A stretch of DNA of 64,000 nt. Origin: a virus. Taxonomy: Duplodnaviria; Heunggongvirae; Uroviricota; Caudoviricetes. Shown piece after piece: positions 1-24,590 of this stretch. The first letter of the stretch is position 1; each line of letters opens with the position of its first letter. The notes beneath the pieces are model-generated. The model worked only from the letters and a program-made list of their open reading frames with translations, searched no databases and was not told where the DNA came from. Both the position numbers and the translations under genes were made by a program. Location of the stretch: IMG/VR virus record IMGVR_UViG_2585427970_000001; one strand, given 5' to 3'.

Positions 1-16
1 CAGTGTCACTTTTAAT

Positions 17-769: not shown

Positions 770-975
770 ATAGCTTTTATCGATAAGTATTATTAGTTAT
801 TCTGTTTATGGCCTTTAGTATATTTAGTCTTTTTTGCTTGCTTTTGATCTAGGTTAATAAAAGGTGCATTTTATAAACTTTTTTGTTTTTTTATTTTTAA
901 TTTATTTTATATTGCCGACAAAGTGTTATACCAGCATAAAATTCTAAATTTTATTTTCAATGTAGCACAATATTC

Positions 976-1479: not shown

Positions 1480-1784
1480 ATCAGAGAAGGACTGTCTATT
1501 CATAGATAAAATAATATCTATATAGGCATTTCTGCATGTTATAAAAATTGCACCTATAGCAATTGTGTTGGTAAACTATCTTTTTCGTTTATAAGGAGGC
1601 GTTAATAAAAAAGTCGCAACTAGGTGTTAATTTTTTTCACTATGTATCGGTTATGTGGTCTTGATGATAGTGAAAAGTTATGGATAAAGCTGACATTAAA
1701 TAATTATACAGATAACAAATTCTCAAAATATTATCTCATTGAGATTTTAACTGTAGCTGGTGCGGTAATTTACTGAAGGTATTT

Positions 1785-4700
1785 ATGAATAAAATATATA
1801 AAGTGATATGGAACCACAGTACTCAGCAGTGGGATGTGGTTTCAGAACTTACAGGTAACAAAAAAAAATGTAAATCTGCTCGCTTAAACCTGGCGTTAGC
1901 CGCTGCTCTTTTTACCGGATCTATGGCGGTTAATTGCAGCAGCGCATTCGCGGATATTTCTCTTGATTCGGCATGGCGTCCGGCACAGAACAACAACCTT
2001 GTTGGGGCCGAGACTGTTAACGGCACGACGGAAAATATCATAGGGCCGATATCGGTCGTTTCTGGTTCTTCTGGTCTCGTTGGCATGACTGTTGATGAAG
2101 CAAAAGCAGAGGGATACATTACGGCTGGGGATGATCTTACCGGATTATTATATATTGACACAGGCGGAAGAACCAAAGCCCTTCAGTACTGGGATGCTGC
2201 GACCGGCGCGTACAGAACGGTACAGGTATATGACAATGACGCTTTTTCTCAGCGGGCTGCAGGCTCATCTGCGAATGAACTCATTTCCGGTTTTGCGCCT
2301 GATGCTGGTTTTTTCTATAAAACCCGTTTTGTTACTGTAACCAATGGTGGTACGGCCAATATTGATGTTGGCGCAGATTTTATTGGTCGCTATTTCAAAG
2401 ATACTCAGCTCGCTGTTGCTGATGGAGCTGGATCAACTGTTAACTGGAATTCTGAAAATGAGTTCTACTTGCAGGCCGCAGCAACTTCTACAAACGGGCT
2501 CACATATACCGCCACAATTGACTCAAAAGCATATGCTGGCACATTTACTGACTGGCAGGGACAACAGCATCAGGTTAATTCACAGGCAGACTTACAGCAA
2601 TATAATGATTATCTGACTCAGGCGATTGTTGACGGTAAGCTGACTGCCTCTCAGTATGAGACTGAATTTAACAGGGCTATTATAACCACCACGCATACGT
2701 ATGATGTTGATCGTACTGCAGGGGGTAAAATTGATCCTGCTATATATCAGGCTGGTATCGGAACACTTGCTGTACTTGAAGCTAGAAATGGTGGAACTGC
2801 ACGACTCAGTTCAACCGGCAAATTAACAGGCATATTGCCGAGTGTTGGGCGTGGAGCTGGTATCATTGCTCGCTCGGGCGGTACAGGTATCAACGAGGGT
2901 ATTATAGATGCTACAGGTATTGCGATGCGTGCATACGGTAACAGCACCATTGTTAATGATGGCACTATCTATTCAGGGATCAACAATTCTAAACACGGAC
3001 GACATGGTGAGGGAATGGTGGCAATTGATGCCGATTCCCTCGCAATAAATAATGGTGTTATTAATATCCGGCCATATAAAGTTGCAACAGTTAATCAGGA
3101 TGGCATCAACACGGCAATGCTAGTGGCTGGTGGCGGTGAAGGAATTAATAATGGCACCATCAATATTACGGCGGATGCTTCAGTTATTGACAGTAAGGGA
3201 CTAACCCGGGGGATCAGTGTGGGTGACGGAGGTTCCTTTACCAATGCATCCACTGGCAAAATCACCGTCGGTGTGGCTGAAGATGGCAGCGCAGCGCATT
3301 CAGCTGTCGGCTCTGTTGCGATTGAGGTTGCGCAAGGGGCAACCCGTGTTATTAATGAAGGGACAATTCTCCTGGGGGAAGGGGCTCAGGGGAACTACGG
3401 TATTTCAGCATCGAACGTCGGAGCAGTAAATACAGTCATCAATAAAGGGACTATCACAGTTGAAGGGCATGACAGCGATACACCTGCACTGAATGTCGGC
3501 ATGTTTGCAAATAACAGCACCGGGCTGAAAAACACCGGGGTTATTAATGTGAATGGCCTGAACAGTGCCGGATTACAGGTCATAAACGGAGGCCAGATAG
3601 CGTCTGACGGTACTGTAAATGTTGGTGGCGTGGATATCAGTAGTGGTTTCCGTAACTATGGTGCATGGGTGGAAGGCACCGGAAGCCGTGTTGATATATC
3701 CGGCGAAATTAGCCTTACTGGTGACGGTGCAGTGGGGGTTTTTGCCAAAGATGGCGGAGACCTGACCCTGTCAGGGAATGGTGCGGTGGTATTCGGTGGC
3801 AGTAACCAGGTGGGGTTTTATGTCTACGGTGATGGTTCCACCATTCATAATACCGGGAACAGTGTTATGGATGTTTCCACCGAAAATTCAACGTTATTCC
3901 GTATTGCCAGCGGGGCGGTATACCGGGGGGGCACAGGGGCATCCTCTGATCTGACGGCATCCGGTAAGAACTCGTATGCGCTTGTTGCCACTGGCAGGTC
4001 TGACACAGGCACTGCCTCAACCGTCACATCCGGAGGGATGACCATCAACCTGACGGGAGAGGGGGCGACTGCTGTCTTGGTAGAGGGCGGGGCACAGGGC
4101 TCAATTGACAGTAATGCCACTATCAATATGGATAATGCCAGCGCGATTGCCGGTATTGCGGATGGCAACGGGTATGATATTTCCGGCAATCTTATTAATC
4201 CAAAAGACAAGACTACATTATTAACAGCAGGTGCTCAGCTGAGCTCTTCTCAGGATAAAGTAACCGGGTATATCGCCCGCAATGGGGCAACCCTGGAGAA
4301 CACCGGTAATATCACCTTTACCGGAAAGAACACGACCGGTATCCGGGTCGAGGAAGGCGCTGCTGGCACCAACAGTGGAAATATCCTCGTTCAGGATGGC
4401 GGTGTGGGATTACTTGCCCGCGGCTCACAGGACGCCACGACCATTAATAACACCGGTAATCTGGTCCTCAGTGGGGGGAATAATGCCAACCGTACTACCG
4501 GGATTAAAGCTTCCGGTGCAGCAACAACAGTTAATATGACCGCTGGCACACTCGATCTGCAGGGGCAGGGGGCGATTGGCGTTGAGGTCAGTGAACAGGG
4601 AACGGTGAATCTTGAGGGGACTGCCATTCCTAAGTTTGCTGCTGACGATTCCGGCATTACCGATCAGATTGCTTTCCGTATTATCGGAGATGGTGCAACC

Positions 4701-7700
4701 ATCAATACGAAGGTTGCACAGGGAACGCTGCTGGAAGCCAGTGGGCAGCGGTCAGTGCTCTTCCGTATTGAAGACGGGGCAAAACAGATTGGCTCTCTGC
4801 AGATGAAAACCTCCGGGACAGGCAGCCGGGGGATCTGGGCCACCGGTAAAGGCAGTGATGTACAGGCGGAGGCCGGCAGTGATTTCCAGATCCTGGGGGA
4901 CCTAGCTCAGGGATTGTATGTCACTGGCGGTGCAACAGCGACCCTGAAACAGGGGATATCCGTTGATCTTGTGGGTGACGGGGCCGTGGTCGCGGAAGTG
5001 GACGGTAATGAGTACGCGCTCGATGGCAGTATTACACAAACGAATACTGGCTCGGTTATTACCAATGAGGCAGATATCTCTTCGCCGCTGAATAATGCCA
5101 AGGGCTTTATTACGCGTAATCAGGGACTGTTGATTAACAGCGGCAACATTGATTTCACTGCCGGTACCGATAATATCGGCGTCTGGGTTGATAACGGTCG
5201 CTTTGAAAATACGGGAAACCGTATTGCGGTCAATGGTGTTGCTTTATTTGTTGAAGGCGCACAGTCTCAGATCACCAGCACGGGAGGGGATATCGTCGCT
5301 GTGGACGGTGAGGCTGCCATTAAGCTGGGGGCGGGCGCGTCACTGAACCTGGCAGGGAGTGGGCTGGGAACGATTGAGGGCCAGAAAAATGCACATGGCA
5401 TCCTGCTGGATACAGGGGCTGTGGGGCTGGTTATTGATGGTGCGAAAATTAATGTGAATGCTGCAGGTGCGGTTGGTCACGGGATTGAGAACCGCGCAGA
5501 AATTGAAGGCATTCAGTTAACCAATACGACTGAAATTAATGTGGCTGATGGCATTGGTGTGCGTACTTCAGCTTCGCTGGCTAAGACCAACAGCGGCACT
5601 ATTAATGTAGATGGCAGCGGAATTGCACTGGCGTTCCGGAAAGCTGACGGAAGTGAAACCGATAATAACCTGGATATGTCTGACTCCGGCGGATTAGTCA
5701 TTAATCTGAAAGGCACGGGCGGCACGGGTATTTTCGCCAACACTAAAGATGGTGCTGTCGTGAAGAGTGGTGCAAGTGTCAATGTTACACAGGCCGATGG
5801 CGGTTCCGCTCTGGTGGTTAACAATGCGGCCAGTGAAGTGGTTCAGAGCGGTAATCTCATTTCTGTTTCTCTGAATCATGCTGTAGTGGATGCATCAAAA
5901 GCACTGTCCTTTACCAATACAGGTCAGATTAAAGCCGCGTCCGCTGCCGGGACTGCAATGGCGTTTGATGACGCCGTGAATACCACCGTACTGAATGACA
6001 GCGGTGCTGAAATTCAGGGGGTTGTGGCTCTGAACGGCGGTGATAACACATTTACCAATAAAGGCAGTATTACCGGAACCGTCAGTGCAAAAGATGGCAA
6101 CAACACATTGTTATTTGATGACGGCAGCACACTGACAGGTGAAGCGACTGCAGGAAACGGCAATAACAATGTAACGCTTAACGGCAGGACACATGTTGAC
6201 CAGGTGATTGCAGGTACAGGACAGAATACCTTCACCATTAAAGGTGAAGGGGCAACCTGGGATCTGCTGGATGGCGGGCAGGGAGATTCTGATTCCCTGA
6301 TTTTTGATAACGCCATTCATACGCTGGATTCTGCTGCAAAGATACAGAACTTTGAACATGTCGGGCTGAAAAATGGTTCCGTTGTCACCCTGAAGGAGGC
6401 ACTGGTGCTGACGGACGGTGGCGCCGGGGCGGGCTCTGTCGATATTGAATCGGGCAGTGAACTGAGCATTACCCCTGCCACAGCAGGCGACTTTACCTTT
6501 GATCCATTGTTAACGGGCAAAGGCACGCTGTCCGCTCAGCTTGATGCCGACACCTCTGCTTTTGAATTCAGCCATAACGTCGGGGATCAGTTTGCCGGCA
6601 CCCTGAAACTGGGCACCAGCAGTTTTGCGCTGGAAGGGCTGAATACGAAGGGGTTGACCCATGCCATGTTGGTGTCTGAAACCGGAAATATCACAACGGT
6701 TGGCTCCGGTGTTCAGAGGATTGGCGGTCTTGGATTCAGTGGCGGAACACTGAATTTTGGTTCTGTCAGCCCGGGAGATATTGTTGCCGGCAACCGTATT
6801 GAAACCTCTGCCGCAGGTACACTGGATCTTCGCGGTCAGGGCACAATTCAGGTCACCATGCCGGTGGTGGTTAATGATATTCCGGTGGTTGATACCCGTA
6901 AGAATCTGCTTGAGCAGGACGATGCGCAGACCCTGGTCACACTGGTGGATGCTAAGGGAACCGTTACCGGCACCGGTGGACAGTTGCAACTGGTGGATGA
7001 AAATGGCCAGGTCATTTCTCACAGTCAGACGTTCGATGTGACTCAGGGCGGTGAAGTGGTGGCCCAGGGGAACTATGACTACAAGATGCTGGGAAGTTCC
7101 GACGGTATTAACGGTGATGGGCTGTATATCGGCTATGGCCTGAAATCGCTGAATTTGCAAGGGACAGGTGATAAAGCGCTGGTGCTGACCCCGAGAGCGA
7201 ACGCACAGGGGCTGCAGTCAGATCTCGGTGCTCAGTTAACGGGAACAGGGGATCTGGCGATAGACGCTGTGGGGCAGGTTGTCACACTGTCCAACGGTGG
7301 TAATAACTACACCGGTGATACGCTGGTGCGCAGCGGCACACTGCAGATGGCAAATGATAATGTGCTTGGCGCTACAGGCAGCCTGAACGTTGCCAGCAAT
7401 GCCGTCTTCAGAACAGACGGATACAGCCAGACGGTGGGTGCACTGCAGACAGAAACGGGAGCGCACATTCAGCTTGATAGCGGTAGTGTACTCACGGTCA
7501 GCGGCACGCAGCGTCAGCCGGGCGATAATAATGGTGGCATCATTGAAAACAATGTGCTGACCGGAGACGGTACGCTGGCTGTCACGGGCAGCAATCTGAC
7601 GGTACATGGCACCAATATCGGGTTCTCCGGTAATGTCAGCCTTACCCGGGGTTCGCTGGTTGAAATGAACGGCGCACAGGGGCTGGGAAGTCTGGGGACC

Positions 7701-9734
7701 GTCAGCTTTGAAAGCCTGAATGACCGTCTGGCGATTGATATCGCCGACGGTAGCGGAGTCAGCAGTAACCTGAGTAAATCGCTTTCCGGAGAAGGTTCAG
7801 TGGACATACTGAACACGACTGATCTGACGCTTTCCGGGGATAACAGTAATTTCAGCGGTGAATTCCGTGTGCAGAAAGATGCTGCTATGCGGGCTTCAGA
7901 TGAAAAACACCTGGGCACCGGGCTGATTGACAGCGAGGGTGTCACCTGGCTTACTGCCAGCGACAGCTGGTTGCTGAAAAATGACATTACGGGTTCCGGT
8001 GCGCTGGTGAAACAGGGGGCGGGTAATCTGATCATTAATCATGAGCTGGCTTATACCGGTGATACCACTGTTGAGAACGGTGTCCTGATTGTCGGTGATG
8101 ATTCAGTCACCAGCGCCGCTGATGCGACGCTGTCAGGCTCCGGAAATATTCATGTTCTCAATGGCGGCACACTCAGTGGGCAGGGTACCGTTGCAGGTCA
8201 TGTAAATAACCAGGGAACGCTGGCATCACTGAATGCACTTTCAGGCTATGAGAACGCAGAAGTAAGCAATTTTACGGTTGGCTCACTGACCAATACCGGC
8301 GTCATTCGTCTGGCCGGTGGTAAGACAGGAAATACCCTGACCGTAAATGGCGATTACACCGGTGGCGGTACGTTAATTATCAATACCGTGCTGGGGGATG
8401 ATACCTCTGCCACTGACAAATTGATTGTCACGGGTAACACTTCCGGCGATACCGGCGTGGTGGTGAATAACGTCCGGGGCCAGGGTGCTCAGACCGCTGA
8501 CGGCATTGAGATTGTGCATGTCGGTGGTCAGTCTGACGGTAACTTCAGACTGGAGAATCGTGCTGTGGCCGGGGCATGGGAATATTTCCTGCATAAAGGT
8601 AATGCGGGTGGTACCGACGGTAACTGGTATCTGCGCTCTGAATTGCCGCCGGAGCCGGGGACAAAACCGGAGACAAAACCGGAGACAAAACCGGAGACAA
8701 AACCGGAGACAAAACCGGAGACAAAACCAACACCGGATAAACCTGTGCAGACGGTCTATCGCCCGGAGGCTGGCTCATATATTTCGAACATTGCGGCGGC
8801 TAACACGCTGTTCAACACCAGAATGCACGATCGTGAGGGGGAAACTTACTATACCGACGTGTTTACTGGTGAGAAAAAAGCAACCAGTATGTGGATGCGT
8901 CATGTTGGCGGTCATAATCGCTGGAAGGACAGTAGTTCACAACTGAATACGCAAAGCAACCGCTATGTTGTGCAACTGGGTGGCAGCATTGCACAGTGGA
9001 CTGACGGTCAGGAGCGTCTGCAGCTGGGTATTATGGCCGGTTACGGGAATGAGAAGAGCTCCACGACATCCTCGGTTTCGGGATATAAATCTAAAGGCTC
9101 GATCAGCGGTTACAGTACCGGTTTATACGGAACGTGGCAGCAGAATGACGGCAATGACACCGGGGCTTATGTTGACACCTGGATCCAGTACGGCTGGTTT
9201 AATAATACTGTTAATGGTGAAAAACTGGCGGCGGAGTCCTGGAAATCCCGTGGATTTACCGGTTCAGTGGAAGCAGGTTATACCTTCAAAGCCGGCGAAT
9301 TTACCGGCAGTCAGGGAAGTCACTATGACTGGTATATTCAGCCACAGTCCCAGCTTACGTGGATGAATGTAAGAGCCGGCGAACATAAGGAGAAAAACGG
9401 CACGAAAGTTCAGCTTAACGGAGACGGCAATATCCAGAGTCGTCTGGGCGTCAGAACTTACCTGAAAGGTAAGAGTGCGTCTGATGACAATAAGGCGCAT
9501 CAGTTCGAGCCTTTTGTGGAGGTTAACTGGATCCATAATACACAGGACTGGAGTGTCAAAATGGATAATACGGTACTCAGTCAGGACGGAGCCACAAATA
9601 TTGCTGAAGTCAAAACGGGGGTTCAGGGTAAATTGTCAGACAACCTGAATATCTGGGGCAATGTTGGCGTTCAGGTCGGCGATAAAGGGTACAGTGATGC
9701 CCAGGCAATGCTGGGTATTAAATATACATTTTAA
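1785..9734 (+). CDS. Type Va (AIDA-I/Ag43-like) autotransporter adhesin, 2649 aa
   Basis: N-terminal extended signal peptide region MNKIYKVIWNHSTQQW...AFA; long Gly/Thr/Asn-rich beta-helix-type passenger; (PETK)n linker; C-terminal beta-barrel with YRPEAGSYI...MWMRHVGGHNRW... ending GIKYTF. Confidence 0.9.
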   Translation: MNKIYKVIWNHSTQQWDVVSELTGNKKKCKSARLNLALAAALFTGSMAVNCSSAFADISLDSAWRPAQNNNLVGAETVNGTTENIIGPISVVSGSSGLVGMTVDEAKAEGYITAGDDLTGLLYIDTGGRTKALQYWDAATGAYRTVQVYDNDAFSQRAAGSSANELISGFAPDAGFFYKTRFVTVTNGGTANIDVGADFIGRYFKDTQLAVADGAGSTVNWNSENEFYLQAAATSTNGLTYTATIDSKAYAGTFTDWQGQQHQVNSQADLQQYNDYLTQAIVDGKLTASQYETEFNRAIITTTHTYDVDRTAGGKIDPAIYQAGIGTLAVLEARNGGTARLSSTGKLTGILPSVGRGAGIIARSGGTGINEGIIDATGIAMRAYGNSTIVNDGTIYSGINNSKHGRHGEGMVAIDADSLAINNGVINIRPYKVATVNQDGINTAMLVAGGGEGINNGTINITADASVIDSKGLTRGISVGDGGSFTNASTGKITVGVAEDGSAAHSAVGSVAIEVAQGATRVINEGTILLGEGAQGNYGISASNVGAVNTVINKGTITVEGHDSDTPALNVGMFANNSTGLKNTGVINVNGLNSAGLQVINGGQIASDGTVNVGGVDISSGFRNYGAWVEGTGSRVDISGEISLTGDGAVGVFAKDGGDLTLSGNGAVVFGGSNQVGFYVYGDGSTIHNTGNSVMDVSTENSTLFRIASGAVYRGGTGASSDLTASGKNSYALVATGRSDTGTASTVTSGGMTINLTGEGATAVLVEGGAQGSIDSNATINMDNASAIAGIADGNGYDISGNLINPKDKTTLLTAGAQLSSSQDKVTGYIARNGATLENTGNITFTGKNTTGIRVEEGAAGTNSGNILVQDGGVGLLARGSQDATTINNTGNLVLSGGNNANRTTGIKASGAATTVNMTAGTLDLQGQGAIGVEVSEQGTVNLEGTAIPKFAADDSGITDQIAFRIIGDGATINTKVAQGTLLEASGQRSVLFRIEDGAKQIGSLQMKTSGTGSRGIWATGKGSDVQAEAGSDFQILGDLAQGLYVTGGATATLKQGISVDLVGDGAVVAEVDGNEYALDGSITQTNTGSVITNEADISSPLNNAKGFITRNQGLLINSGNIDFTAGTDNIGVWVDNGRFENTGNRIAVNGVALFVEGAQSQITSTGGDIVAVDGEAAIKLGAGASLNLAGSGLGTIEGQKNAHGILLDTGAVGLVIDGAKINVNAAGAVGHGIENRAEIEGIQLTNTTEINVADGIGVRTSASLAKTNSGTINVDGSGIALAFRKADGSETDNNLDMSDSGGLVINLKGTGGTGIFANTKDGAVVKSGASVNVTQADGGSALVVNNAASEVVQSGNLISVSLNHAVVDASKALSFTNTGQIKAASAAGTAMAFDDAVNTTVLNDSGAEIQGVVALNGGDNTFTNKGSITGTVSAKDGNNTLLFDDGSTLTGEATAGNGNNNVTLNGRTHVDQVIAGTGQNTFTIKGEGATWDLLDGGQGDSDSLIFDNAIHTLDSAAKIQNFEHVGLKNGSVVTLKEALVLTDGGAGAGSVDIESGSELSITPATAGDFTFDPLLTGKGTLSAQLDADTSAFEFSHNVGDQFAGTLKLGTSSFALEGLNTKGLTHAMLVSETGNITTVGSGVQRIGGLGFSGGTLNFGSVSPGDIVAGNRIETSAAGTLDLRGQGTIQVTMPVVVNDIPVVDTRKNLLEQDDAQTLVTLVDAKGTVTGTGGQLQLVDENGQVISHSQTFDVTQGGEVVAQGNYDYKMLGSSDGINGDGLYIGYGLKSLNLQGTGDKALVLTPRANAQGLQSDLGAQLTGTGDLAIDAVGQVVTLSNGGNNYTGDTLVRSGTLQMANDNVLGATGSLNVASNAVFRTDGYSQTVGALQTETGAHIQLDSGSVLTVSGTQRQPGDNNGGIIENNVLTGDGTLAVTGSNLTVHGTNIGFSGNVSLTRGSLVEMNGAQGLGSLGTVSFESLNDRLAIDIADGSGVSSNLSKSLSGEGSVDILNTTDLTLSGDNSNFSGEFRVQKDAAMRASDEKHLGTGLIDSEGVTWLTASDSWLLKNDITGSGALVKQGAGNLIINHELAYTGDTTVENGVLIVGDDSVTSAADATLSGSGNIHVLNGGTLSGQGTVAGHVNNQGTLASLNALSGYENAEVSNFTVGSLTNTGVIRLAGGKTGNTLTVNGDYTGGGTLIINTVLGDDTSATDKLIVTGNTSGDTGVVVNNVRGQGAQTADGIEIVHVGGQSDGNFRLENRAVAGAWEYFLHKGNAGGTDGNWYLRSELPPEPGTKPETKPETKPETKPETKPETKPTPDKPVQTVYRPEAGSYISNIAAANTLFNTRMHDREGETYYTDVFTGEKKATSMWMRHVGGHNRWKDSSSQLNTQSNRYVVQLGGSIAQWTDGQERLQLGIMAGYGNEKSSTTSSVSGYKSKGSISGYSTGLYGTWQQNDGNDTGAYVDTWIQYGWFNNTVNGEKLAAESWKSRGFTGSVEAGYTFKAGEFTGSQGSHYDWYIQPQSQLTWMNVRAGEHKEKNGTKVQLNGDGNIQSRLGVRTYLKGKSASDDNKAHQFEPFVEVNWIHNTQDWSVKMDNTVLSQDGATNIAEVKTGVQGKLSDNLNIWGNVGVQVGDKGYSDAQAMLGIKYTF
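8655..8726 (+). repeat. 6 x 12-bp in-frame tandem repeat (CCGGAGACAAAA) encoding (PETK)n in the autotransporter linker
   Basis: Direct read: one CCGGGGACAAAA unit followed by five CCGGAGACAAAA units. Confidence 0.9.
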
Positions 9735-9781
9735 TCACATAGTGGCAGGAGGATCCCTCCTGCCACATCCGGGTAGTCATA

Positions 9782-10324
9782 ATGAGTTCTGTAATGAAAT
9801 TTTCTGTTGCTAATGCAGTATTGTTGCTGTTGCTGATTGGATTTACTGGTGTTATTTATATGAATAAATCAAAAGAAATTGCAGTTGTTAATATTGATGC
9901 TGTTTATAATCAGTCTTCTGCCGGAGAACTGGTCAGAACGCATCTGAGTGAAGTTAAGATTATTCTTGAAAAGGGATACAAGGATGCGCTAAAAGCATTC
10001 GCAGATAATGAAAATAAAGATGTGCTGCTTCTTGATGCCAGACAAAAACTGGAAAGACAATATGTTATCGAGGAGCACAATGCAAAGATGGTATTATCCC
10101 GTGCAATAGATAATGCCATAAATAACTGGAGAAAAGATAACACAGGAAATATTGCTGTATTGTCTTCAGGTGTTGTGCTTTCACATAACGATTCAGCCGA
10201 TATCACAAAAGAAATCATGGCTCTGGTTGAAAAAGAACATCTGGTTTTTAGTCAGTTACCGAAAGTGGAAGTGAAAGCTCAGGAGGAGATAAAAAGTAAA
10301 GAGGGAACGGAAGAAGGTAAATAA
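9782..10324 (+). CDS. Skp/OmpH-like periplasmic chaperone (alternative start at 9794)
   Basis: N-terminal hydrophobic signal/anchor, then a charged coiled-coil-like body (...EIAVVNIDAVYNQSSAGELVRTH...NIAVLSSGVVLSHNDSADITKEIMALV...) typical of OmpH-family chaperones; sits directly after the autotransporter. Confidence 0.55.
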   Translation: MSSVMKFSVANAVLLLLLIGFTGVIYMNKSKEIAVVNIDAVYNQSSAGELVRTHLSEVKIILEKGYKDALKAFADNENKDVLLLDARQKLERQYVIEEHNAKMVLSRAIDNAINNWRKDNTGNIAVLSSGVVLSHNDSADITKEIMALVEKEHLVFSQLPKVEVKAQEEIKSKEGTEEGK

Positions 10325-10361
10325 TCATTAGTTCCCGGTAACGTCTGTTAAGGCGATTCAC

Positions 10362-10402
10362 AAGCCGGTATCTGTTATCACTCAGATACCGGCTTGTTGT
10401 TG
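10362..10402 (+). terminator. Terminator-like hairpin after the Skp-like gene
   Basis: AAGCCGGTATCTG / AGATACCGGCTT inverted repeat followed by a GTTGTTG tract. Confidence 0.45.
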
Positions 10403-10577
10403 AGTCCGGGAACCGTCCGGCAACAGCGTCAGATATCAGGGGGAGAAAGACTGGTTCAGTAACGTTATCATCTTCGGACTCAAATTCTGATAAATGACAG
10501 GGATATGCGACATGCATTACTTAACGTATACCATCTGTAGTCAGATAAAAATTTATCTTTGATGTGGGGAATGACAT

Positions 10578-10964
10578 ATGGAAATGAAAAAAAACATTTG
10601 CTATATAAAGAGCGAAATAAAAGAGCATAGTATTACTGTTCACCTGTGGGTATTTGCATCGCTGACAAAAATTGAGTGTGATGTGCTTGAGTTAATAATG
10701 AAAGGGTATAGCTCTACAAAAATATCACACCTCCGGAATCGTAGTGATAAAACTGTATCGTCACAAAAGAGACAGATATACAAAAAACTGGGTGTCCGAA
10801 ATGATCTTACATTCTGGATTGATATTTTTTTGTCACCATCGATAAGAACAGTTTTTTACCGGAAAGGGGACGTTGTTCACATAGGAAATGAAATTTTCGG
10901 AATGTCCGGTGATGCATTAAAGCTTTGGAATAATTCACTGAACACATCACCGGACAAAAAGTGA
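10578..10964 (+). CDS. LuxR/GerE-type HTH regulator (HTH-only, 128 aa)
   Basis: ...LTKIECDVLELIMKGYSSTKISHLRNRSDKTVSSQKRQIYKKLGV... matches the LuxR-family HTH pattern. Confidence 0.55.
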   Translation: MEMKKNICYIKSEIKEHSITVHLWVFASLTKIECDVLELIMKGYSSTKISHLRNRSDKTVSSQKRQIYKKLGVRNDLTFWIDIFLSPSIRTVFYRKGDVVHIGNEIFGMSGDALKLWNNSLNTSPDKK

Positions 10965-11034
10965 GTATTAATAATTACTGCTGTATCAGTTTGAAGAAGG
11001 TTTAATTAACAAACTGGTTATCATATACACGCCG

Positions 11035-11064
11035 GCTCAGACCGGCGATTTCTTTTTTGTATGT
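11035..11064 (+). terminator. Rho-independent terminator (CGCCGG-loop-CCGGCG, then T-run)
   Basis: Perfect 6-bp GC stem at 11035-11040 / 11047-11052 followed by ATTTCTTTTTTG. Confidence 0.7.
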
Positions 11065-11259
11065 AGATCTTCTATGCTTCTCACGTGTTTGTGAATTAAA
11101 ACACCTAAAGGTGTTAAGCGCTAGCAAGAAGGAGGGTGGTGGCAGTAATGTTGTATTTGGCATGCTCACTCACATAATCAATGACGCAAGAAGTGGGAAA
11201 TTTTATGATTGTCCGGTTATTTAATACGCAAAGAGCTGGTGCTTTATGCCTGTGAAGTT

Positions 11260-11290
11260 TATAATTGTGTACACATGACGAGTACACGAG
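11260..11290 (+). promoter_or_regulatory. phd-doc promoter/operator: TATAAT -10 followed by palindromic Phd operator half-sites (TGTGTACACA, GAGTACAC)
   Basis: TATAAT at 11260-11265; perfect 10-bp palindrome at 11266-11275 and a related site at about 11280-11287, immediately upstream of phd. Confidence 0.6.
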
Positions 11291-11296
11291 GTGTTT

Positions 11297-11518
11297 ATGC
11301 AATCCATTAACTTCCGTACCGCGCGCGGCAACCTTTCTGAAGTGCTCAACAATGTTGAAGCCGGGGAAGAGGTTGAAATCACCCGCAGAGGCCGTGAGCC
11401 AGCAGTAATTGTCAGCAAGGCTACTTTCGAAGCCTACAAAAAAGCGGCGCTGGATGCTGAATTTGCATCCCTGTTTGACACCCTGGACTCCACCAACAAG
11501 GAACTGGTTAACCGATAA
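11297..11518 (+). CDS. phd: Phd antitoxin (prevent-host-death), P1-type
   Basis: Matches P1 Phd as remembered: [73 protein letters not shown]. Confidence 0.95.
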
Positions 11519-11898
11519 TGAGGCATATATCACCGGAAGAACTTATTGCGCTTCATGATGCGAATATAAACCGCTACGGCGGCCTGCCGGGAATGTCAGA
11601 TCCGGGTAGGGCAGAGGCCATTATCGGGAGAGTTCAGGCCAGAGTTGCCTACGAAGAGATCACCGACCTTTTCGAAGTCTCCGCCACCTACCTGGTGGCT
11701 ACAGCGAGAGGGCATATATTCAATGATGCCAATAAGCGTACCGCGCTAAACAGTGCGTTGTTATTTCTACGCCGTAACGGGGTGCAGGTATTTGATTCAC
11801 CTGAACTGGCAGACCTTACCGTAGGGGCTGCGACCGGAGAGATATCTGTATCTTCTGTCGCCGACACGTTACGTAGATTGTATGGTTCCGCGGAGTAG
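11518..11898 (+). CDS. doc: Doc toxin (death on curing; Fic-fold kinase)
   Basis: 126 aa, [22 protein letters not shown]...; ATG overlaps the phd stop (TAATG), the classic phd-doc arrangement. Confidence 0.95.
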
Positions 11899-12082
11899 AT
11901 TAATGGCACGTAAATACAACAAATTGTCCCGTGAAGCGTTAAAGATGCTTCTTGATGGCGTGAGTCGCCGCGAGGTAAAGCAATACCTGGTTGGTAAGCA
12001 AATTGGAGCCAGGACTGCTATTGCTGTGTTATGCCGTCAGGAAATGGTTGTGCTTAAACAGAGAATGCCGGGCAGCAGATAA
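11882..12082 (+). CDS. Small post-doc protein (P1 PdcA-like by position)
   Basis: 66-aa ORF immediately after doc; named by synteny with P1 only. Confidence 0.35.
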
Positions 12083-12109
12083 AGCCCAATCAGTGATGAA
12101 AGGTGTGAT

Positions 12110-13153
12110 GTGAAAGCCGTAATTACTCCCTTTGTACAAAAAGAGCTTGGCGTCGCCACATTCAAAGTGGATCAGGAAGTCAGAAAGCTGGTGGAGGCTG
12201 GCCGTAAATTTATTATGGAGCCGGTGCCGCGTGAGTTAATCGAGCACATGGACGACGGCCTCGTTGTTTCCGAGCAAACCATGGCAACAAATGAGGCGTT
12301 GCAGCCGTTTTTTAACAGCGATGAGCTGTTTCGTCGTATTGGTGGAATTGACGCGCTGGTGGCGTGGTTGCGCAGGAAAGAGGGGCGATGCCAGGCCGCA
12401 GATCGTAGTTGGTGTGACAACCATATTGTCCACGCTGAACGAGACAATAGCGCGGTGTTGCTGTGCTGGCATCACGATAACCATTACTGGATGCGTGGTT
12501 TTAATGAGCTGAAAGAAACGCTGCATAATAATCGCGTTAACTGGATACTGGATGTCGCCCGTCAGGAAATGGGGCTTTCAGATGGCTATGATTTAAGTAT
12601 TCAGGAACTGTGCTGGTGGGCTTTCATGCGCAACATGATGCACCTGATGCCGGAAGAAGTTTGCCGTATATCAATAAATAAGATGAAGGCTGCTCCGCAG
12701 GATAGCGGACCTTTGAAAGAGGCGGATATTCGCCCGTATGACGATCGTGCTACAGCATATGTTCAGATGATGGAAGAACGCGCCGCGCCGATGCGTGCAA
12801 AAGTATGCCCTGTGGATGTTGACTCCGACCCTGGCACGGCGCATTTCAAAATACCAAAACTGCAATCGCTAAAATTACCTGAGTACATGGACTTTGTTGC
12901 TTCCCGTCCATGCTGTGGGTGTGGAGCGGCGGGAGCTGGCGCTCACATTACGCCTTATATCGTTCGTCATAGTCGATTATGCGCGCATGACATTTACGCA
13001 ATTCCTCTGTGCCAGTCATGCCAGCGTGATATTGAGCGTGACCGCGATAATTGGGAGAAGACGCACGGTAGGCTGGCGATGCATCAACGATTGTTCTTTG
13101 ATTACGCGCTTGGAGTCGGCGCTATCACAAGTCACTCGTCTAGCGTTAGATAA
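12110..13153 (+). CDS. Post-doc protein (P1 PdcB-like by position), Cys-rich C-terminus
   Basis: 347-aa ORF between doc and lpa; C-terminal CCGC...CQSC cysteine cluster; function unknown. Confidence 0.45.
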
Positions 13154-13154
13154 A

Positions 13155-13171
13155 ATTGCTCTAATGTATTG
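13155..13171 (+). promoter_or_regulatory. C1 operator-like site (14/17 to ATTGCTCTAATAAATTT) upstream of lpa
   Basis: ATTGCTCTAATGTATTG; the conserved ATTGCTCTAAT core is present. Confidence 0.45.
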
Positions 13172-13241
13172 CTATTTCTTTAATCGATGGTATTATATTC
13201 CACGTTGATTAGTTGACATGGGCTAATCAGTAGGTGACAGG

Positions 13242-13694
13242 ATGTTACTTAACTGGCAGGGACGCCACTTCATGGAAATAAATCACTCACGAATAACATC
13301 GTATGAGATTGCGGATTACATGATCCGCACTAAATCTCTTCTATCAGCGAAAGAACTCGCAGCAATTCTTGAAAAGGAATACCCGCATCTGGATGTCGAT
13401 AAGCGCGATGTTTATCTGCGCTTAAAGGCTATCGCTGTGTCTAAGTATTCGTCTGTTTTGATTGATGACAGTACACGCCCACGTAGATTTCAGATCCACT
13501 CTCTGAATCCTGAATTCTTTCGCCGTAGCCGCGCTCCGCGCCGGTTTGATGAAAAACTCCAGAACGAACTCTATATGACGCAGGACGAAAAGGAACGCCG
13601 GGAGCACCAGCCTTGGGTAATGGCGCGTCAACTTTTCAATAAGGTGGCCCGTCAGCACCGTCATTACGGTAATGCCACATCCGCACGTATCTGA
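13242..13694 (+). CDS. lpa: Late promoter activator Lpa-like protein
   Basis: 150-aa basic protein in the P1 position between pdcB and pacA, preceded by a C1 operator-like site. Confidence 0.55.
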   Translation: MLLNWQGRHFMEINHSRITSYEIADYMIRTKSLLSAKELAAILEKEYPHLDVDKRDVYLRLKAIAVSKYSSVLIDDSTRPRRFQIHSLNPEFFRRSRAPRRFDEKLQNELYMTQDEKERREHQPWVMARQLFNKVARQHRHYGNATSARI

Positions 13695-13779
13695 TTGATT
13701 GCTTGCCCGTTCCGGGCCTTTTGACATGTGACTTTCGTTACCCTCGCGTCAAAAAGAGTTTTTACGAAAGGAAGCATAA

Positions 13780-14973
13780 GTGACCTGGGACGATCACAAG
13801 AAGAATTTTGCTCGCCTGGCGCGAGATGGTGGTTACACCATCGCACAGTATGCCGCCGAGTTTAATCTTAACCCTAATACCGCACGTCGTTATCTCCGTG
13901 CCTTCAAAGAAGACACCAGGACTGCGGACAGCCGCAAGCCAAATAAGCCAGTCAGGAAGCCACTAAAAAGCATGATCATTGATCACTCTAATGATCAACA
14001 TGCAGGTGATCATATTGCGGCTGAAATAGCGGAAAAACAGAGAGTTAATGCCGTTGTCAGTGCCGCAGTCGAGAATGCGAAGCGCCAAAATAAGCGCATA
14101 AATGATCGTTCAGATGATCATGACGTGATCACCCGCGCCCACCGGACCTTACGTGATCGCCTGGAACGCGACACCCTGGATGATGATGGTGAACGCTTTG
14201 AATTCGAAGCTGACGATTACCTGATAGATAACGTTGAAGCGCGGAAGGCCGCGCGCGCTATGTTGCGTCGGTCCGGGGCCGATGTTCTGGAAACCACTCT
14301 TCTTGAAAAGTCTCTTTCTCATCTCCTTATGCTGGAGAACGCCAGGGATACGTGTATTCGCCTGGTGCAGGAAATGCGCGATCAGCAAAAAAACGATGAT
14401 GAAGGTACTCCGCCTGAATACCGTATCGCGAGCATGCTAAACAGCTGTTCCGCGCAGATAAGCAGTCTGATCAACACCATTTACAGCATCCGGAATAACT
14501 ATCGAAAAGAAAGCCGGGAGGCGGAAAAGCACGCTTTATCTATGGGGCAAGCTGGCATTGTTAAGCTGGCATACGAACGAAAGCGTGAAAATAACTGGTC
14601 AGTGCTGGAAGCAGCTGAATTCATCGAGGCGCATGGCGGGAAAGTGCCGCCCCTGATGCTGGAGCAAATCAAAGCCGATCTGCGTGCTCCTAAGACCAAT
14701 ACCGATGATGAGGAAAGGCAAACTGCCGTCGGTGGCCCTTCTCTTGAAGATCTGGACAAAGTTGCGCGAGAACGGGCCGCCAACCGCCGCGCCGATGCCG
14801 CATTGTGGATTGAGCAACGTAGGGAAGAAATCGCCGATATCGTTGATACAGGCGGTTATGGAGATGTTGATACTGAAGGTGTATCAAACGAACCATGGCT
14901 GGAACAAGACCTGGACGAAGACGAGGAGGAAGACGAAGAAGTTACCCGCAAGCTATACGGGGATGATGATTAA
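13780..14973 (+). CDS. pacA: Terminase small/pac-recognition subunit PacA (GTG start)
   Basis: 397 aa; contains the pac-type clustered TGATCA/G hexamers in its 5' part; followed directly by pacB. Confidence 0.8.
13971..14160 (+). promoter_or_regulatory. P1-type pac site: two clusters of Dam-methylatable GATC hexamers (4 + 4) flanking the presumed cleavage region
   Basis: GATC at 13974, 13981, 13993, 14008 and at 14104, 14117, 14127, 14154, all in TGATCA/G-type context. Confidence 0.7.
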
Positions 14974-15358
14974 TGGCCAGAAGTTGCGTAACGGATCCAC
15001 GTTGGCGCGAGCTGGTGGCGCTATATCGTTATGACTGGATTGCGGCCGCTGATGTTTTGTTCGGCAAAACACCTACCTGGCAGCAGGATCTGATTATTGA
15101 GTCTGTGCAGGAACAGGGTAGCAAGACATCTGTTTCGTCTGGTCACGGTACCGGGAAATCAGACATGACTTCTATCATGATCATGTTGTTCATAATCATG
15201 TATCCCGGTGCCCGCGCCATTATCGTTGCGAACAAAATTCAGCAGGTAATGACCGGTATATTCAAGTACATCAAGATAAACTGGGCTACTGCCACCAGCC
15301 GTTTTCCATGGCTTGCTGATTATTTTGTTCTGACAGAAACCGCTTTCTATGAGGTTAC
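14973..15358 (+). pseudogene. pacB: pacB (terminase large subunit), 5' fragment interrupted by an IS element
   Basis: Reading frame ...ETAFYEVT runs straight into the IS left inverted repeat at 15359. Confidence 0.85.
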
Positions 15359-15412
15359 TGAACCGCCCCGGGAATCCTGGAGACTAAACTTCCTGAGAAA
15401 GAGGTAAACAGG

Positions 15413-15739
15413 ATGACTAAAAATACTCGTTTTTCCCCCGAAGTCCGTCAACGGGCAGTCCGTATGGTTCTGGAAAGTCAGAGCGAATATGACTCACAAT
15501 GGGCGACAATTTGTTCCATTGCTCCAAAGATTGGCTGTACGCCGGAGACTCTGCGTGTCTGGGTTCGCCAGCATGAGCGGGATACCGGGGGCGGTGATGG
15601 AGGGCTCACCACCGCTGAACGTCAGCGTCTGAAAGAGCTGGAACGTGAAAATCGTGAACTGCGCCGCAGTAACGATATCCTTCGCCAGGCTTCCGCTTAT
15701 TTTGCGAAGGCGGAGTTCGACCGCCTCTGGAAAAAGTGA
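15413..15739 (+). CDS. IS3-family transposase OrfA (HTH)
   Basis: 108 aa, [23 protein letters not shown]...; leucine-zipper-like C-terminus. Confidence 0.9.
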
Positions 15740-16626
15740 TGCCACTGCTGGATAAGCTGCGTAAGCTGTACGGGGTCGGACCGGTATGCAGTGAACTACA
15801 TATTGCCCCGTCAACGTATTACCACTGTCAGCAACAGCGACATCATCCGGATAAACGCAGTGCCCGTGCGCAGCGCGATGACTGGCTGAAGAAAGAGATA
15901 CAGCGCGTATACGATGAAAATCACAAGGTATACGGTGTGCGTAAAGTCTGGCGTCAGTTGTTACGGGAAGGTATCAGAGTGGCCAGATGCACTGTGGCAC
16001 GTCTCATGGCGGTTATGGGACTTGCCGGTGTTCTCCGGGGTAAAAAGGTCCGTACGACCATCAGCCGGAAAGCCGTTGCCGCAGGCGACCGCGTAAACCG
16101 TCAGTTCGTGGCAGAACGACCTGACCAGCTGTGGGTGGCTGATTTTACTTACGTCAGCACATGGCGGGGCTTCGTCTATGTGGCGTTCATCATTGATGTG
16201 TTTGCCGGATACATCGTGGGGTGGCGGGTCTCATCGTCCATGGAAACGACATTCGTGCTGGATGCACTGGAGCAGGCGTTATGGGCCCGTCGACCGTCCG
16301 GCACGGTCCATCACAGTGATAAAGGTTCTCAGTATGTATCGCTGGCCTACACACAGCGGCTTAAGGAAGCCGGATTACTGGCATCAACAGGAAGTACAGG
16401 CGACTCGTATGACAACGCGATGGCGGAGAGCATCAATGGTCTTTACAAAGCGGAGGTAATACACCGTAAGAGCTGGAAAAACCGTGCAGAAGTGGAACTG
16501 GCCACACTCACGTGGGTGGACTGGTATAACAATCGACGATTGCTGGAAAGGCTGGGCCATACTCCTCCGGCAGAAGCAGAAAAAGCTTATTATGCTTCCA
16601 TCGGAAACGATGATCTGGCAGCCTGA
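15736..16626 (+). CDS. IS3-family transposase OrfB (DDE catalytic domain), expressed by -1 frameshift as OrfAB
   Basis: 296 aa with an integrase-type core (...[10 protein letters not shown]...[15 protein letters not shown]...); overlaps orfA in the -1 frame. Confidence 0.9.
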
Positions 16627-16668
16627 GTTCACAGATAAAACACTCTCCAGGAAACCCGGGGCGGTTCA

Positions 16669-17770
16669 TACTGGTAAAGGTGTATGGACTGTAGTACCGA
16701 AGGGCTTTCGTCTGGGAAGTGAAGAAGCTCTCGCCGGTGAACACGCAGATCATCTTCTGTATATTATCGATGAAGCCTCCGGTGTCAGTGATAGAGCTTT
16801 CGGTATCATCACCGGTGCTCTTACCGGACAGGATAACCGCATCTTATTACTGTCACAGCCTACACGCCCAAGCGGCTATTTCTACGATACTCACCATAAA
16901 CTGGCCAAGCGTCCTGGTAACCCTGATGGCGTTTATACGGCGATCACGCTTAACAGTGAGGAATCACCGCTGGTAACGCCAGCATTTATCAAAATGAAGC
17001 TGGCGGAGTACGGCGGGCGCGATAACCCTATGTACATGATTAAGGTACGCGGCCTATTCCCTAAATCACAGGATGGCTTCCTTCTTGGACGTGATGAGGT
17101 TGAACGTGCAACGCGGCGGAAAGTCAAGATTGCCAAAGGATGGGGCTGGCTTGCATGTGTGGACGTTGCTGGTGGTACGGGAAGGGATAAGTCCGTTATC
17201 AATATCATGATGGTGTCCGGCCAGAGAAATAAACGCCGTGTAATCAACTATCGAATGCTGGAATACACAGACGTTACAGAAACGCAGCTTGCCGCCAAAA
17301 TTTTCGCAGAATGTAATCCTGAGCGATTCCCAAATATCACCATAGCGATAGACGGCGATGGGCTGGGTAAAGCAACAGCGGATCTGATGTACGAGTATTA
17401 TGGTATTACCGTACAGCGTATACGCTGGGGTAAAAAGATGCATAGCCGTGAAGATAAGAGCCTGTACTTTGATAAACGTGCTTATGCCAACGTTCAAGCC
17501 GCAGAGGCCGTAAAATCTGGTCGTATGAGACTGGATAAGGGTAATGAAACTATTGAGGAAGCGTCGAAAATCCCTGTAGGGATTAACTCCGCAGGTCAAT
17601 GGAAGGTGATGAGTAAGGAGGATATGAAGAAAAAACTCAACCTGCACTCACCAGACCATTGGGATACATATTGTTTCGCTATGCTGGCGGATTATGTTCC
17701 CCAGGACGAAGTGCTTAGCGTCGAAGACGAAGCGCAGGTTGATGAAGCTCTTGCATGGCTTAATGAATGA
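16669..17770 (+). pseudogene. pacB: pacB, 3' fragment
   Basis: After removing the IS and one TAC copy the frame reads through continuously (...FYEVT|[12 protein letters not shown]...); the two parts sum to about 496 aa. Confidence 0.85.
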
Positions 17771-17773
17771 ATA

Positions 17774-17790
17774 TTTGCTCTAATAAATTG
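17774..17790 (+). promoter_or_regulatory. C1 operator-like site (15/17) upstream of the icd-ant module
   Basis: TTTGCTCTAATAAATTG versus consensus ATTGCTCTAATAAATTT. Confidence 0.55.
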
Positions 17791-17799
17791 TGTTTTTTA

Positions 17800-17945
17800 A
17801 CTACCGATGTTACATTGAACCTGACCTCTTGCGCCTTGAGGCATTTTCGGTTTATGCTTATCAGGCACCTCAGTAAAACGGGTGCCGGGATTGGCCTCCC
17901 GCTTAAGTCTAAGGCGATACAGACGCCGCTCGCGTCTTTTTTTTG
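17800..17945 (+). ncRNA. Candidate small regulatory RNA (c4-like antisense RNA region) ending in a strong intrinsic terminator
   Basis: No protein-coding signal; terminator GACGC-CGCTC-GCGTC plus T8 at 17921-17945; contains GTCTAAGG, also present in the icd leader, and a stretch partly complementary to the icd RBS. Confidence 0.3.
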
Positions 17946-18109
17946 TATCGGCGTACACGCACACCTCTACAATGGTGGGCTGTATGGGGCTACCTTCGGG
18001 TAGGCTGGTTACCTTGGACGCCAGTAAGGCCAACTCCGTACAGTCCACCGCCAGCAAGATTGGTCTCTTCTGCGGTGGTTACATACCAACGTCTAAGGAG
18101 GCTGCCAAT

Positions 18110-18331
18110 ATGGCTACTATCCCTACCCCAACTCATCCTGAATTTATCTGGCGCTTTTACTCCTGCCAAAAACGTCACTATCACTTCGTTATTGCACCGA
18201 CAGAAGATGAGGCACGTTCTCAGCTTCCTGACGCCCCATGTATTTTCTCTGCCCGTTTTTCCACTGATTCACGCAATTCTCTCAGTTACTGGTGCCTCCC
18301 TGTTAACGCTTCTGCTCAGGAGGGACTATGA
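18110..18331 (+). CDS. Icd-like small protein (host cell-division inhibitor family)
   Basis: Strong SD (AAGGAGG) 7 nt upstream; motif FIWRF...VIAPTEDEARSQL...FSARF resembles Icd-like proteins; stop overlaps the ant start. Confidence 0.5.
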   Translation: MATIPTPTHPEFIWRFYSCQKRHYHFVIAPTEDEARSQLPDAPCIFSARFSTDSRNSLSYWCLPVNASAQEGL

Positions 18332-19446
18332 GAACATCGTTAGTTACCCGTGAAGAGATGATCGAGGCAATTGAACAGCACACTGCCTGTATCAGTACCA
18401 GGGATATACCAGGCGTTATTGCCAACTACTTCATGATCACCAAACAACTTTACCGGAGAAAGGACAAGAACGCGGTTCACCGTATCCTGTTGTCTGATAT
18501 CCGCGAATACCTGCTCGAACAGGGTCATCTGAATTACGCAACCGTCGCAGCCGAATCACGCAAGGAGGCACACAGAATGAAAGCAACTAACGTTAAATCA
18601 GAAAAAATTCATGCACCTTCAGTTCAGGAATCGGAGCTGGTGGTTGTTCAGAATCAGTCTGATGAAATTCCCGTTCTGGAATGGCAGGGAGTGCGTGTAG
18701 TGACAACCGAGACTCTTGCTAGAGGGTATGGGACAGAAACAATCCGTATTCGCCAAAATCATCATGAGAACAAAGTACGCTTTGTTGAAGGGAAGCACTT
18801 TTTCAAAGTTGAAGGAGAATCATTGCGCGAGTTGAAGCACAGAGTAGCTTTAAACTACTCTGTAAAAATTGCTCGCAATGTTCGCTCACTCACCCTCTGG
18901 ACAGAACGCGGCGCAGCCCGCCACGCTAAAATGCTCGAAACCGATCAGGCATGGGCATTCTTTGAAAAACTGGAAGACAGCTACTTCCGGCAAAAAGAAC
19001 AGCAACCGGTTGCAATCCCCCAGACGCTTCCAGAAGCTCTGCGCCTGGCTGCCGAACTGGCTGAACAAAAGCAGCTTCTGGAACAGAAAGCCCACCAGCT
19101 AAATCAGCAGCTGGTGGCCGCCGCTCCTAAAGTCGATTTTGCCGACCGGGTATCAGTAGCTAAAGGGATCCTGATTGGGAATTTTGCAAAGGTTGTTGGA
19201 CTTAAGCAAAACGCGCTGTTTGCCTGGTTACGGGAGAACGGCATCCTGATAGCGTCCGGTGGACGTAAAAATGTGCCGTTCCAGCAGTACATCAATGCGG
19301 GGTATTTCACGGTGAAAGAAGTGGTGCTGGATGATGAAGATGGCTACCAGATACGGTTGACGCCTCAATTAACGGGTAAAGGCCAGCAGTGGTTGACGCG
19401 TAAACTGCTCGATGCTGGCTTGTTAAAACCGGTGGCGGCTGAATAA
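18328..19446 (+). CDS. Antirepressor-like protein (ORF6N/KilA-N type domain plus C-terminal KilAC-type domain)
   Basis: 372 aa; ...IPVLEWQGVRVVTTETLARGYG...FFKVEGESLRELK... and C-terminal ...VAKGILIGNFAKVVGLKQNALFAWLRENGIL...; the true start could be the internal Met at 18577. Confidence 0.6.
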   Translation: MRTSLVTREEMIEAIEQHTACISTRDIPGVIANYFMITKQLYRRKDKNAVHRILLSDIREYLLEQGHLNYATVAAESRKEAHRMKATNVKSEKIHAPSVQESELVVVQNQSDEIPVLEWQGVRVVTTETLARGYGTETIRIRQNHHENKVRFVEGKHFFKVEGESLRELKHRVALNYSVKIARNVRSLTLWTERGAARHAKMLETDQAWAFFEKLEDSYFRQKEQQPVAIPQTLPEALRLAAELAEQKQLLEQKAHQLNQQLVAAAPKVDFADRVSVAKGILIGNFAKVVGLKQNALFAWLRENGILIASGGRKNVPFQQYINAGYFTVKEVVLDDEDGYQIRLTPQLTGKGQQWLTRKLLDAGLLKPVAAE

Positions 19447-19478
19447 TGGAAGAATGCCCGGTTGATGCCGGGCATAAT

Positions 19479-20905: not shown

Positions 20906-20971
20906 TGTCAAACAACTATGAAAAACAATCCAGTTTTTAGCTGGTGGAGTGGGATTTTTCTCTCAAAATTT

Positions 20972-24582: not shown

Positions 24583-24590
24583 AACTAGCA

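Follow-up and report, generated by a model that had tools for sequence, protein, structure and literature searches.

Classical (type Va) autotransporters are the textbook 'self-sufficient' secretion systems, which borrow the general chaperones of the cell. Here we describe a small gene that directly follows a giant autotransporter of this type, an adhesin of the UpaE family, in a 64,000-nucleotide stretch of DNA (the window) taken from the IMG/VR virus record IMGVR_UViG_2585427970_000001. The product of the gene is a new, autotransporter-linked and probably membrane-tethered variant of the periplasmic chaperone Skp. Good comparative evidence suggests a helper function, for which essentiality is already excluded.

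The dedicated helpers of type V secretion named in reviews and in a 2026 survey are SadB and TpgA only, both serving trimeric autotransporters (PMC8151025; 10.64898/2026.01.22.700529), and the survey, which covered trimeric autotransporters, judged further helpers unlikely (10.64898/2026.01.22.700529). SadB is a trimeric inner-membrane lipoprotein encoded in an operon with SadA, an adhesin bearing an extended signal peptide region (ESPR), and enhances the display of SadA without being required for it (PMC3953254). The SadA-SadB system and the window pair share a small envelope protein encoded together with a giant ESPR-bearing adhesin (UpaE-type in the window), a tether to the inner membrane on its periplasmic side (demonstrated for SadB, predicted for the small protein), the loss of both proteins together in K-12, and the ability of the adhesin to reach the surface without its small companion. 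SadB differs in its fold, a coiled coil with a MATH-like domain unrelated to the Skp fold, in its nature as a lipoprotein, the window protein lacking a lipobox, and in serving a type Vc trimeric autotransporter, whereas the small gene accompanies type Va monomeric ones; its function is experimental, while that of the small gene is proposed from comparison. TpgA, the helper of the trimeric autotransporter AtaA of Acinetobacter, is likewise periplasmic and co-transcribed with its autotransporter, and its loss lowers surface display (PMC8151025), but it is a monomeric protein of BamE-like and OmpA-like peptidoglycan-binding domains that acts at the outer membrane, and its fold is unrelated to that of the small protein.

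Among proteins of the Skp fold, E. coli Skp (HlpA/OmpH; PDB 1sg2, 1u2m; PF03938) resembles the small protein in size, contacts autotransporters early after Sec export and is the first periplasmic factor that the autotransporter EspP meets, as seen by crosslinking (PMC8151025). The two differ at the N-terminus, which in Skp is a cleaved signal peptide and in the small protein a hydrophobic segment of transmembrane length with no conserved cleavage site. They also differ in the conserved C-terminal motif, shorter helical hairpin and net acidic periplasmic part of the small protein, and in genomic position: skp lies in a bamA-skp-lpxD cluster, whereas the small gene lies beside an autotransporter, between it and a LuxR-type gene in the window or between upaE and tRNA-Arg on the chromosome. 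SkpA of the Extended Translocon of type 9 secretion (PDB 8gl8; PMC10994853) is a Skp homologue recruited to one outer-membrane secretion system and also carries a C-terminal extension, but it belongs to another phylum and another secretion system, has its gene in a conserved skp operon away from that of its client, and is only about 10% identical to the small protein.

The closest described locus is ipuB-ipuA-ipuS-ipuR-upaE, which encodes the phase-variable adhesin UpaE of uropathogenic E. coli; the describing paper treats ipuR-upaE as a two-gene operon, detected UpaE with ipuS in its ON phase state and does not mention the small gene downstream (PMC6083910). The window adhesin is 83% identical, over its full 2649 residues, to the chromosomal UpaE of strain ABU 83972, and the small genes are orthologous, but the window pair resides on a P1-like phage-plasmid under regulators of the PapI/PapB type in place of the ipu invertase switch. 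Neither the small gene nor an autotransporter-linked Skp paralogue nor a membrane-anchored Skp is described in any paper returned by a literature search.

The small gene and its Skp/OmpH fold

A reading made from the sequence alone (the sequence-only reading) had placed a Skp/OmpH-like gene 48 bp after the adhesin stop codon and proposed structure prediction as a check. The coordinates of the open reading frame (ORF) hold (Table 1), as does its tight spacing behind the adhesin, the gap between the autotransporter stop codon and the ORF being one base shorter, at 47 nt. The true start is either 9782 or the in-frame ATG at 9794, which is conserved, aligns with the start of the L006 homologue (one of the compared loci, numbered with L) and is the start chosen by the Prokaryotic Genome Annotation Pipeline (PGAP) in a near-identical plasmid. 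Homologues are found at 37-95% identity, and pairwise ratios of nonsynonymous to synonymous divergence (dN/dS) against five of them range from 0.14 to 0.45, with dS up to or past saturation; by this comparison the ORF is a real gene under purifying selection. An exhaustive profile search recovered 212 relatives at E ≤ 1e-3, just six of which are closer than 1e-30. A profile scan of species-representative genomes yielded no match with one family alignment and only two Desulfovibrionaceae metagenome-assembled genomes with another.

The relationship to Skp emerges from profiles and structure. NCBIfam holds no match to the window protein, an hmmsearch of PDB sequences with a shallow seven-sequence profile gave no relevant match, and hhalign against E. 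coli Skp returned an E value of 0.053. With a family profile of 25 sequences spanning 24-95% identity, the best four PDB sequence matches are OmpH chains (E 0.004-0.019), and 24 of the 25 aligned members match Pfam OmpH at E ≤ 0.01, the best of them at 1.7e-10. The same alignment was the input for an AlphaFold (AF2) monomer model, which has a mean predicted local distance difference test score (pLDDT) of 87.2 and a predicted template modelling score of 0.70. The model consists of a helix (residues 3-27), a strand (32-36), a short helix, a helical hairpin (46-72 and 79-119), a strand (123-128) and a helix (142-149); its body strands flank a long alpha-helical hairpin, as in the 'jellyfish' subunit of Skp. 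The top seven Foldseek matches to an independent shallow model are all Skp/OmpH. Identity to Skp in the structural alignments is only 14-16%. The small protein is thus a relative of the Skp/OmpH family, weakly so by sequence and with confirmation from the predicted structure and from transitive profile evidence. The Skp/OmpH-like label of the sequence-only reading is borne out by these results, weak as the single-sequence evidence is, and the proposed structure prediction returned the Skp protomer fold. The family assignment itself is not new, since 'OmpH family outer membrane protein' is the name that many copies already have in PGAP annotation.

The gene departs from the plain Skp-like gene of that reading by an anchor-like N-terminus and a family-specific C-terminal motif. 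The helical hairpin of the small protein spans about 74 residues in the model and is shorter than that of Skp, which has roughly 90. The Pfam OmpH match stops at residue 147, ahead of the C-terminal motif, in which P160 is invariant and F156 and V162 are at least 90% conserved across the 25 aligned sequences. The motif block is modelled with a pLDDT of about 93 and is followed by a charged tail of low confidence.

The N-terminal segment contains an uncharged run of 21-22 residues (7-27 or 7-28) in the window protein and of 21-24 residues in homologues. Its best 19-residue Kyte-Doolittle average is 2.3, against 2.3-3.0 in close homologues and 1.17 in the Skp signal peptide, and the candidate -3/-1 cleavage sites are poor and unconserved between homologues. 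The segment is modelled as a single helix and ends in a Y-M-x-K sequence, whose Y26, M27 and K29 are invariant in the seven closest homologues, and the first strand of the body begins four residues further on. A hydrophobic run of transmembrane length combined with the lack of a conserved cleavage site indicates that the N-terminus is probably an uncleaved inner-membrane anchor. Many distant relatives carry lipoprotein signals at the alignment position of the anchor. In the Yersinia ruckeri homologue the lipobox reads L-S-G-C-D, placing Asp at position +2 after the Cys; in enterobacteria this residue is an inner-membrane retention signal, a rule that has been applied to SadB (PMC3953254). Two different anchors, a signal anchor and a lipid anchor, appear to point to one place, which would strengthen the idea of tethering.

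At the L008 locus (~2750..2830) a run of seven T residues stands where eight would keep the anchor part in frame, and gene callers start at an internal Met to give a product of 143 residues; the run reflects either a mistake of assembly or a tract prone to slippage.

Linkage to autotransporters and transcription signals

On the E. coli chromosome the order of genes is ipuB, ipuA, (ipuS), ipuR, upaE, an unnamed gene of 172 codons and tRNA-Arg, and the unnamed gene is the orthologue of the small ORF at 77% identity. A 2-kb query spanning the 3' end of upaE and the ORF, and a sensitive query with the gene only, each found it in 253 of 5426 complete E. coli genomes (~5%), CFT073, ABU 83972 and Nissle 1917 among them. 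In 251 of these genomes the match extends over at least 80% of the gene, and no listed E. coli copy lies away from upaE. The 'private' gene of the sequence-only reading is therefore not confined to the mobile element but is a fixed companion of chromosomal upaE. The corresponding K-12 site at argW holds the CPS-53 prophage instead of the upaE locus and the small gene.

The record of the Stx phage GER2 (L021, MG710528.1) includes ipuA-ipuR-upaE and the small gene at 2447..12531, with upaE split and mis-annotated as 'long tail fiber proximal subunit'. The idea that GER2 is another phage carrying the pair is probably wrong: the locus stands among several annotated attL candidates at one end of the record, and it is probably flanking chromosome and not phage cargo.

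The UpaE-type pair, with its gap of about 47 nt and an intercistronic hairpin, recurs in chromosomal E. coli, in Salmonella diarizonae and in the metagenome loci L005, L006 and L008, the L006 homologue lying on the contig of a mobilisable plasmid. All close homologues with enough flanking sequence (S. diarizonae, L005, L006 and L008) stand behind a UpaE-family autotransporter. The beta-domains of these autotransporters are 72-97% identical to that of the window, while the small proteins are only 41-77% identical; to judge from these comparisons, the pair has stayed linked while diverging considerably, the small gene at a higher rate than the autotransporter.

A distant clade, at 25-31% identity to the small protein, comprises Yersinia ruckeri and Desulfovibrionaceae. 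The Y. ruckeri version, a lipoprotein, is encoded 24 nt behind a 1675-residue autotransporter that is only 27% identical to UpaE. In Desulfovibrio a relative lies 21 nt behind a 1627-residue autotransporter with no BLAST similarity to UpaE (L011/L012). Further relatives of the distant clade precede autotransporters of 1742 residues (by 237 nt, L019) and 1720 residues (by 32 nt, L025). The N-terminal signal regions of the Desulfovibrio autotransporters are long, at 43-46 residues. Autotransporter genes are rare, at a fraction of a percent of the gene total, and to find relatives of the small gene beside four different families of them, on either side, is therefore strong, though not universal, guilt by association.

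The arrangement of signals around the pair is most simply read as one transcription unit. The 47-nt gap contains no promoter-like site, and a terminator-like hairpin occurs only past the small ORF (-45.9 kcal/mol, z -7.95), where a stem of at least 14 bp is followed by UUGUUGUU. A consensus terminator scan did not call this hairpin, because its T-run is interrupted. The gap itself holds a second, perfectly paired stem-loop (-25.2 kcal/mol, z -4.1), found at the equivalent spot in six loci of the UpaE family, two of which (L006 and L008) show compensatory changes in both arms that leave the pairing perfect. This internal hairpin may stabilise the upstream mRNA or dampen read-through. A role in sequestering a Shine-Dalgarno sequence, suggested by AGGAGG in its 5' arm, was rejected: in L006 and L008 the stem persists with different arm sequences, and the arm is some 30 nt away from the start codon. 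On the Y. ruckeri plasmid (L010, CP084645) a GC-rich hairpin with a T-run overlaps the last codons and the stop of the autotransporter gene (6280..6332) and looks like a terminator just ahead of the gene for the Skp-like lipoprotein.

Proposed role and alternatives

We propose, with a probability of about 0.55, that the small gene encodes a periplasmic holdase of the Skp/OmpH fold, tethered to the inner membrane and co-transcribed with the UpaE-type autotransporter, which acts as a non-essential helper of its display. The uncleaved N-terminal helix would anchor the protein N-in, C-out, and the Skp-like body, about four residues past the anchor, would sit at the inner membrane on the periplasmic side, its helical arms reaching into the periplasm. 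There it could capture the very long (~270 kDa) ESPR-bearing chain as it leaves SecYEG, and keep it unfolded and protected until it is passed to SurA and the BAM complex. The ESPR itself is thought to prolong inner-membrane association (PMC8151025). The small protein would raise the yield or quality of display, and would be non-essential because the host chaperones Skp, SurA and DegP overlap with it. We infer for the small protein trimer formation, inner-membrane anchoring, co-transcription, binding to the autotransporter and an effect on display.

A broader claim, for which we would give somewhat less than even odds, is that of a widespread family of membrane-tethered Skp-like chaperones, with signal or lipid anchors, dedicated to type Va autotransporters from Enterobacterales to Desulfovibrionaceae. 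With such a family, monomeric autotransporters would have their first dedicated helper in the periplasm, acting with the ESPR at the inner-membrane exit site.

Several observations weigh against the proposed holdase. UpaE reaches the surface without the small gene: upaE cloned alone, with a reverse primer ending at the stop codon, gave full-size, surface-located, biofilm-forming and extracellular matrix-binding UpaE in the K-12 strain MS427 (PMC6083910). Since K-12 is devoid of the small gene, the gene is not strictly required for UpaE display and is at most a factor of efficiency or quality, at least under over-expression with host Skp present. The secretion helper for the adjoining adhesin that the sequence-only reading envisaged is partly supported: the tight linkage holds and is conserved, but the gene cannot be strictly required. 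The window protein misses the curated threshold of Pfam OmpH (PF03938; 17.7 bits, E 0.0044, cut-off 32.4 bits). Its periplasmic part is net acidic (22 K/R against 26 D/E), unlike the basic Skp; client recognition may therefore differ from that of Skp. The close homologues all accompany a single autotransporter family, so the enterobacterial linkage is essentially one inherited event. The linkage also has gaps. The L007 homologue (42% identity) is an orphan with no autotransporter upstream; the L013 relative stands behind a hybrid histidine kinase, that of L015/16 stands alone, and those of L017/18 and L023 stand behind a methyltransferase, the L023 contig ending just downstream. A 48-residue ORF upstream of the L007 homologue was considered as an autotransporter remnant and rejected, as it has no Pfam match and its C-terminus is unlike the ...GIKYTF ends of the UpaE family.

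The members in non-autotransporter contexts (L007, L013, L015/16 and L017/18) also fit a different role, that of a general additional Skp paralogue, which buffers envelope stress or aids many outer-membrane proteins and travels with the adhesin island with no preference for autotransporters. The clients of E. coli Skp are broad and chaperone requirements overlap (PMC8151025), and the dispensability of the gene for UpaE in K-12 is in keeping with such a generalist. A generalist would not, however, be expected beside four different autotransporter families, in either order and at gaps of 21-59 nt (237 nt once), a frequency far above expectation, nor would the E. coli census be expected to return the same number of genomes (253) for the pair query and for the ORF-only query, with no listed copy away from upaE. 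We regard this explanation as unlikely.

Slightly less likely still is the reuse of the Skp scaffold as a structural adaptor, in which a trimer encloses and orders one specific segment of the autotransporter, the ESPR/N-terminal region or the linker being candidates, or links it to another envelope component, with the F-x2-L-P-x-V motif as the docking element. SkpA provides the precedent, as it immobilises the N-terminus of SprA in its cavity, while its C-terminal extension relative to E. coli Skp contacts PorV (PMC10994853). The small-protein family likewise has a conserved C-terminal extension past the OmpH domain and shorter arms, and membrane tethering would suit a fixed structural role. 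Against an adaptor stand the display of UpaE in K-12 cells lacking the gene and the little or no sequence that the Yersinia and Desulfovibrio autotransporters share with UpaE, among which a single conserved docking segment is not evident. That the gene is a decaying or functionless passenger of the upaE island is highly improbable in view of purifying selection: a number of copies in the databases are incomplete or frameshifted (P0020, P0023 and entries marked 'partial'), the anchor-coding frame is broken in the L008 copy and the small protein evolves faster than the autotransporter, but dN/dS is low over saturated dS, the fold and invariant residues persist across 24-95% identity, and nearly all E. 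coli copies (251 of 253) cover at least 80% of the gene.

If the tethered holdase proposed above is correct, the concept of a dedicated helper extends to type Va autotransporters, and the poorly understood step of ESPR function and inner-membrane retention gains a concrete partner. It would also join SkpA of the type 9 secretion system as the second Skp scaffold adapted to a single secretion pathway. Because uropathogenic E. coli, Nissle 1917 and the P1-like phage-plasmid of an avian E. coli isolate all carry the gene next to UpaE, it may influence adhesin display and matter for the design of autotransporter-based surface display with very long passengers.

The adhesin and its cassette

The window (1..64000, of which 1..21000 was checked) is a P1-like (Punavirus) phage-plasmid, in the checked part 99.5-100% identical to pAPEC201602 (NZ_CP127299.1) of an avian E. 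coli isolate, which is the sole true plasmid in PLSDB with the small gene. The flanking genes are P1-like as well (phd/doc, lpa, pacA/pacB, c1, a Cre-like integrase and ref), and the adhesin cassette is cargo inserted directly upstream of phd/doc. The adhesin is intact in the window and frameshifted by annotation in pAPEC201602. The features of the cassette are collected in Table 1.

Table 1. Genes, protein segments and RNA stem-loops of the adhesin cassette in the window.
Feature	Position	Strand	Basis and remarks
PapI/FaeA-type regulator	539..769	-	PGAP, matching gene in pAPEC201602; ORF list; divergent from the papB-like gene
PapB/FocB-type regulator	976..1479	+	Pfam PapB E 3.7e-27; PGAP in near-identical plasmid; upstream of the autotransporter
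UpaE-family classical (type Va) autotransporter adhesin	1785..9734	+	2649 residues, intact; ESPR, PATR, AC_1, beta-domain
Intercistronic 11-bp stem-loop	9742..9766	+	No U-tract; between autotransporter stop and small ORF
Small ORF, Skp/OmpH-fold gene	9782..10324	+	ATG start, 180 residues; alternative start 9794, 176 residues
Hydrophobic N-terminal segment, residues 7-27	9800..9862	+	Probably uncleaved signal anchor (type II, N-in)
C-terminal motif F156-x2-L159-P160-x-V162	10247..10267	+	Conserved; beyond Pfam OmpH domain
Stem-loop, stem of at least 14 bp, then TTGTTGTT	10361..10404	+	Fold; probable end of transcription unit
LuxR-type helix-turn-helix gene	10578..10964	+	Pfam GerE E 1.2e-10; 128 residues; downstream

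The PapI-like and PapB-like regulators take the place of the ipuA/ipuB invertases, the ipuS switch and ipuR of the chromosomal locus. A Dam-methylation switch of the Pap type is not evident, as the spacer between the papI-like and papB-like genes contains just one GATC (846). The downstream LuxR-type gene was considered as a displaced ipuR and rejected, since its resemblance to IpuR, just 11 of 26 identities, does not go beyond the helix-turn-helix.

The adhesin displays an ESPR (E 2.9e-14), PATR repeats, an AC_1 autochaperone (residues 2165-2269) and a beta-domain (PF03797), the latter with an E value of 1.7e-41 when the last 330 residues are scanned alone. Together with its identity to chromosomal UpaE, this places it by sequence in the UpaE autotransporter family, whose chromosomal copies PGAP names 'phase-variable autotransporter adhesin UpaE'. 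In the giant autotransporters of the window and of L025 (4572..9734) a full-length hmmscan missed PF03797, whereas a scan restricted to the C-terminal ~310-330 residues scored it at E 1e-34 to 1e-41, which means that autotransporters can go unseen in precomputed Pfam tables. Between AC_1 and the beta-domain the adhesin carries a tandem peptide repeat, (PETK)5, at 8667..8726 (residues 2295-2314), which may vary in length.

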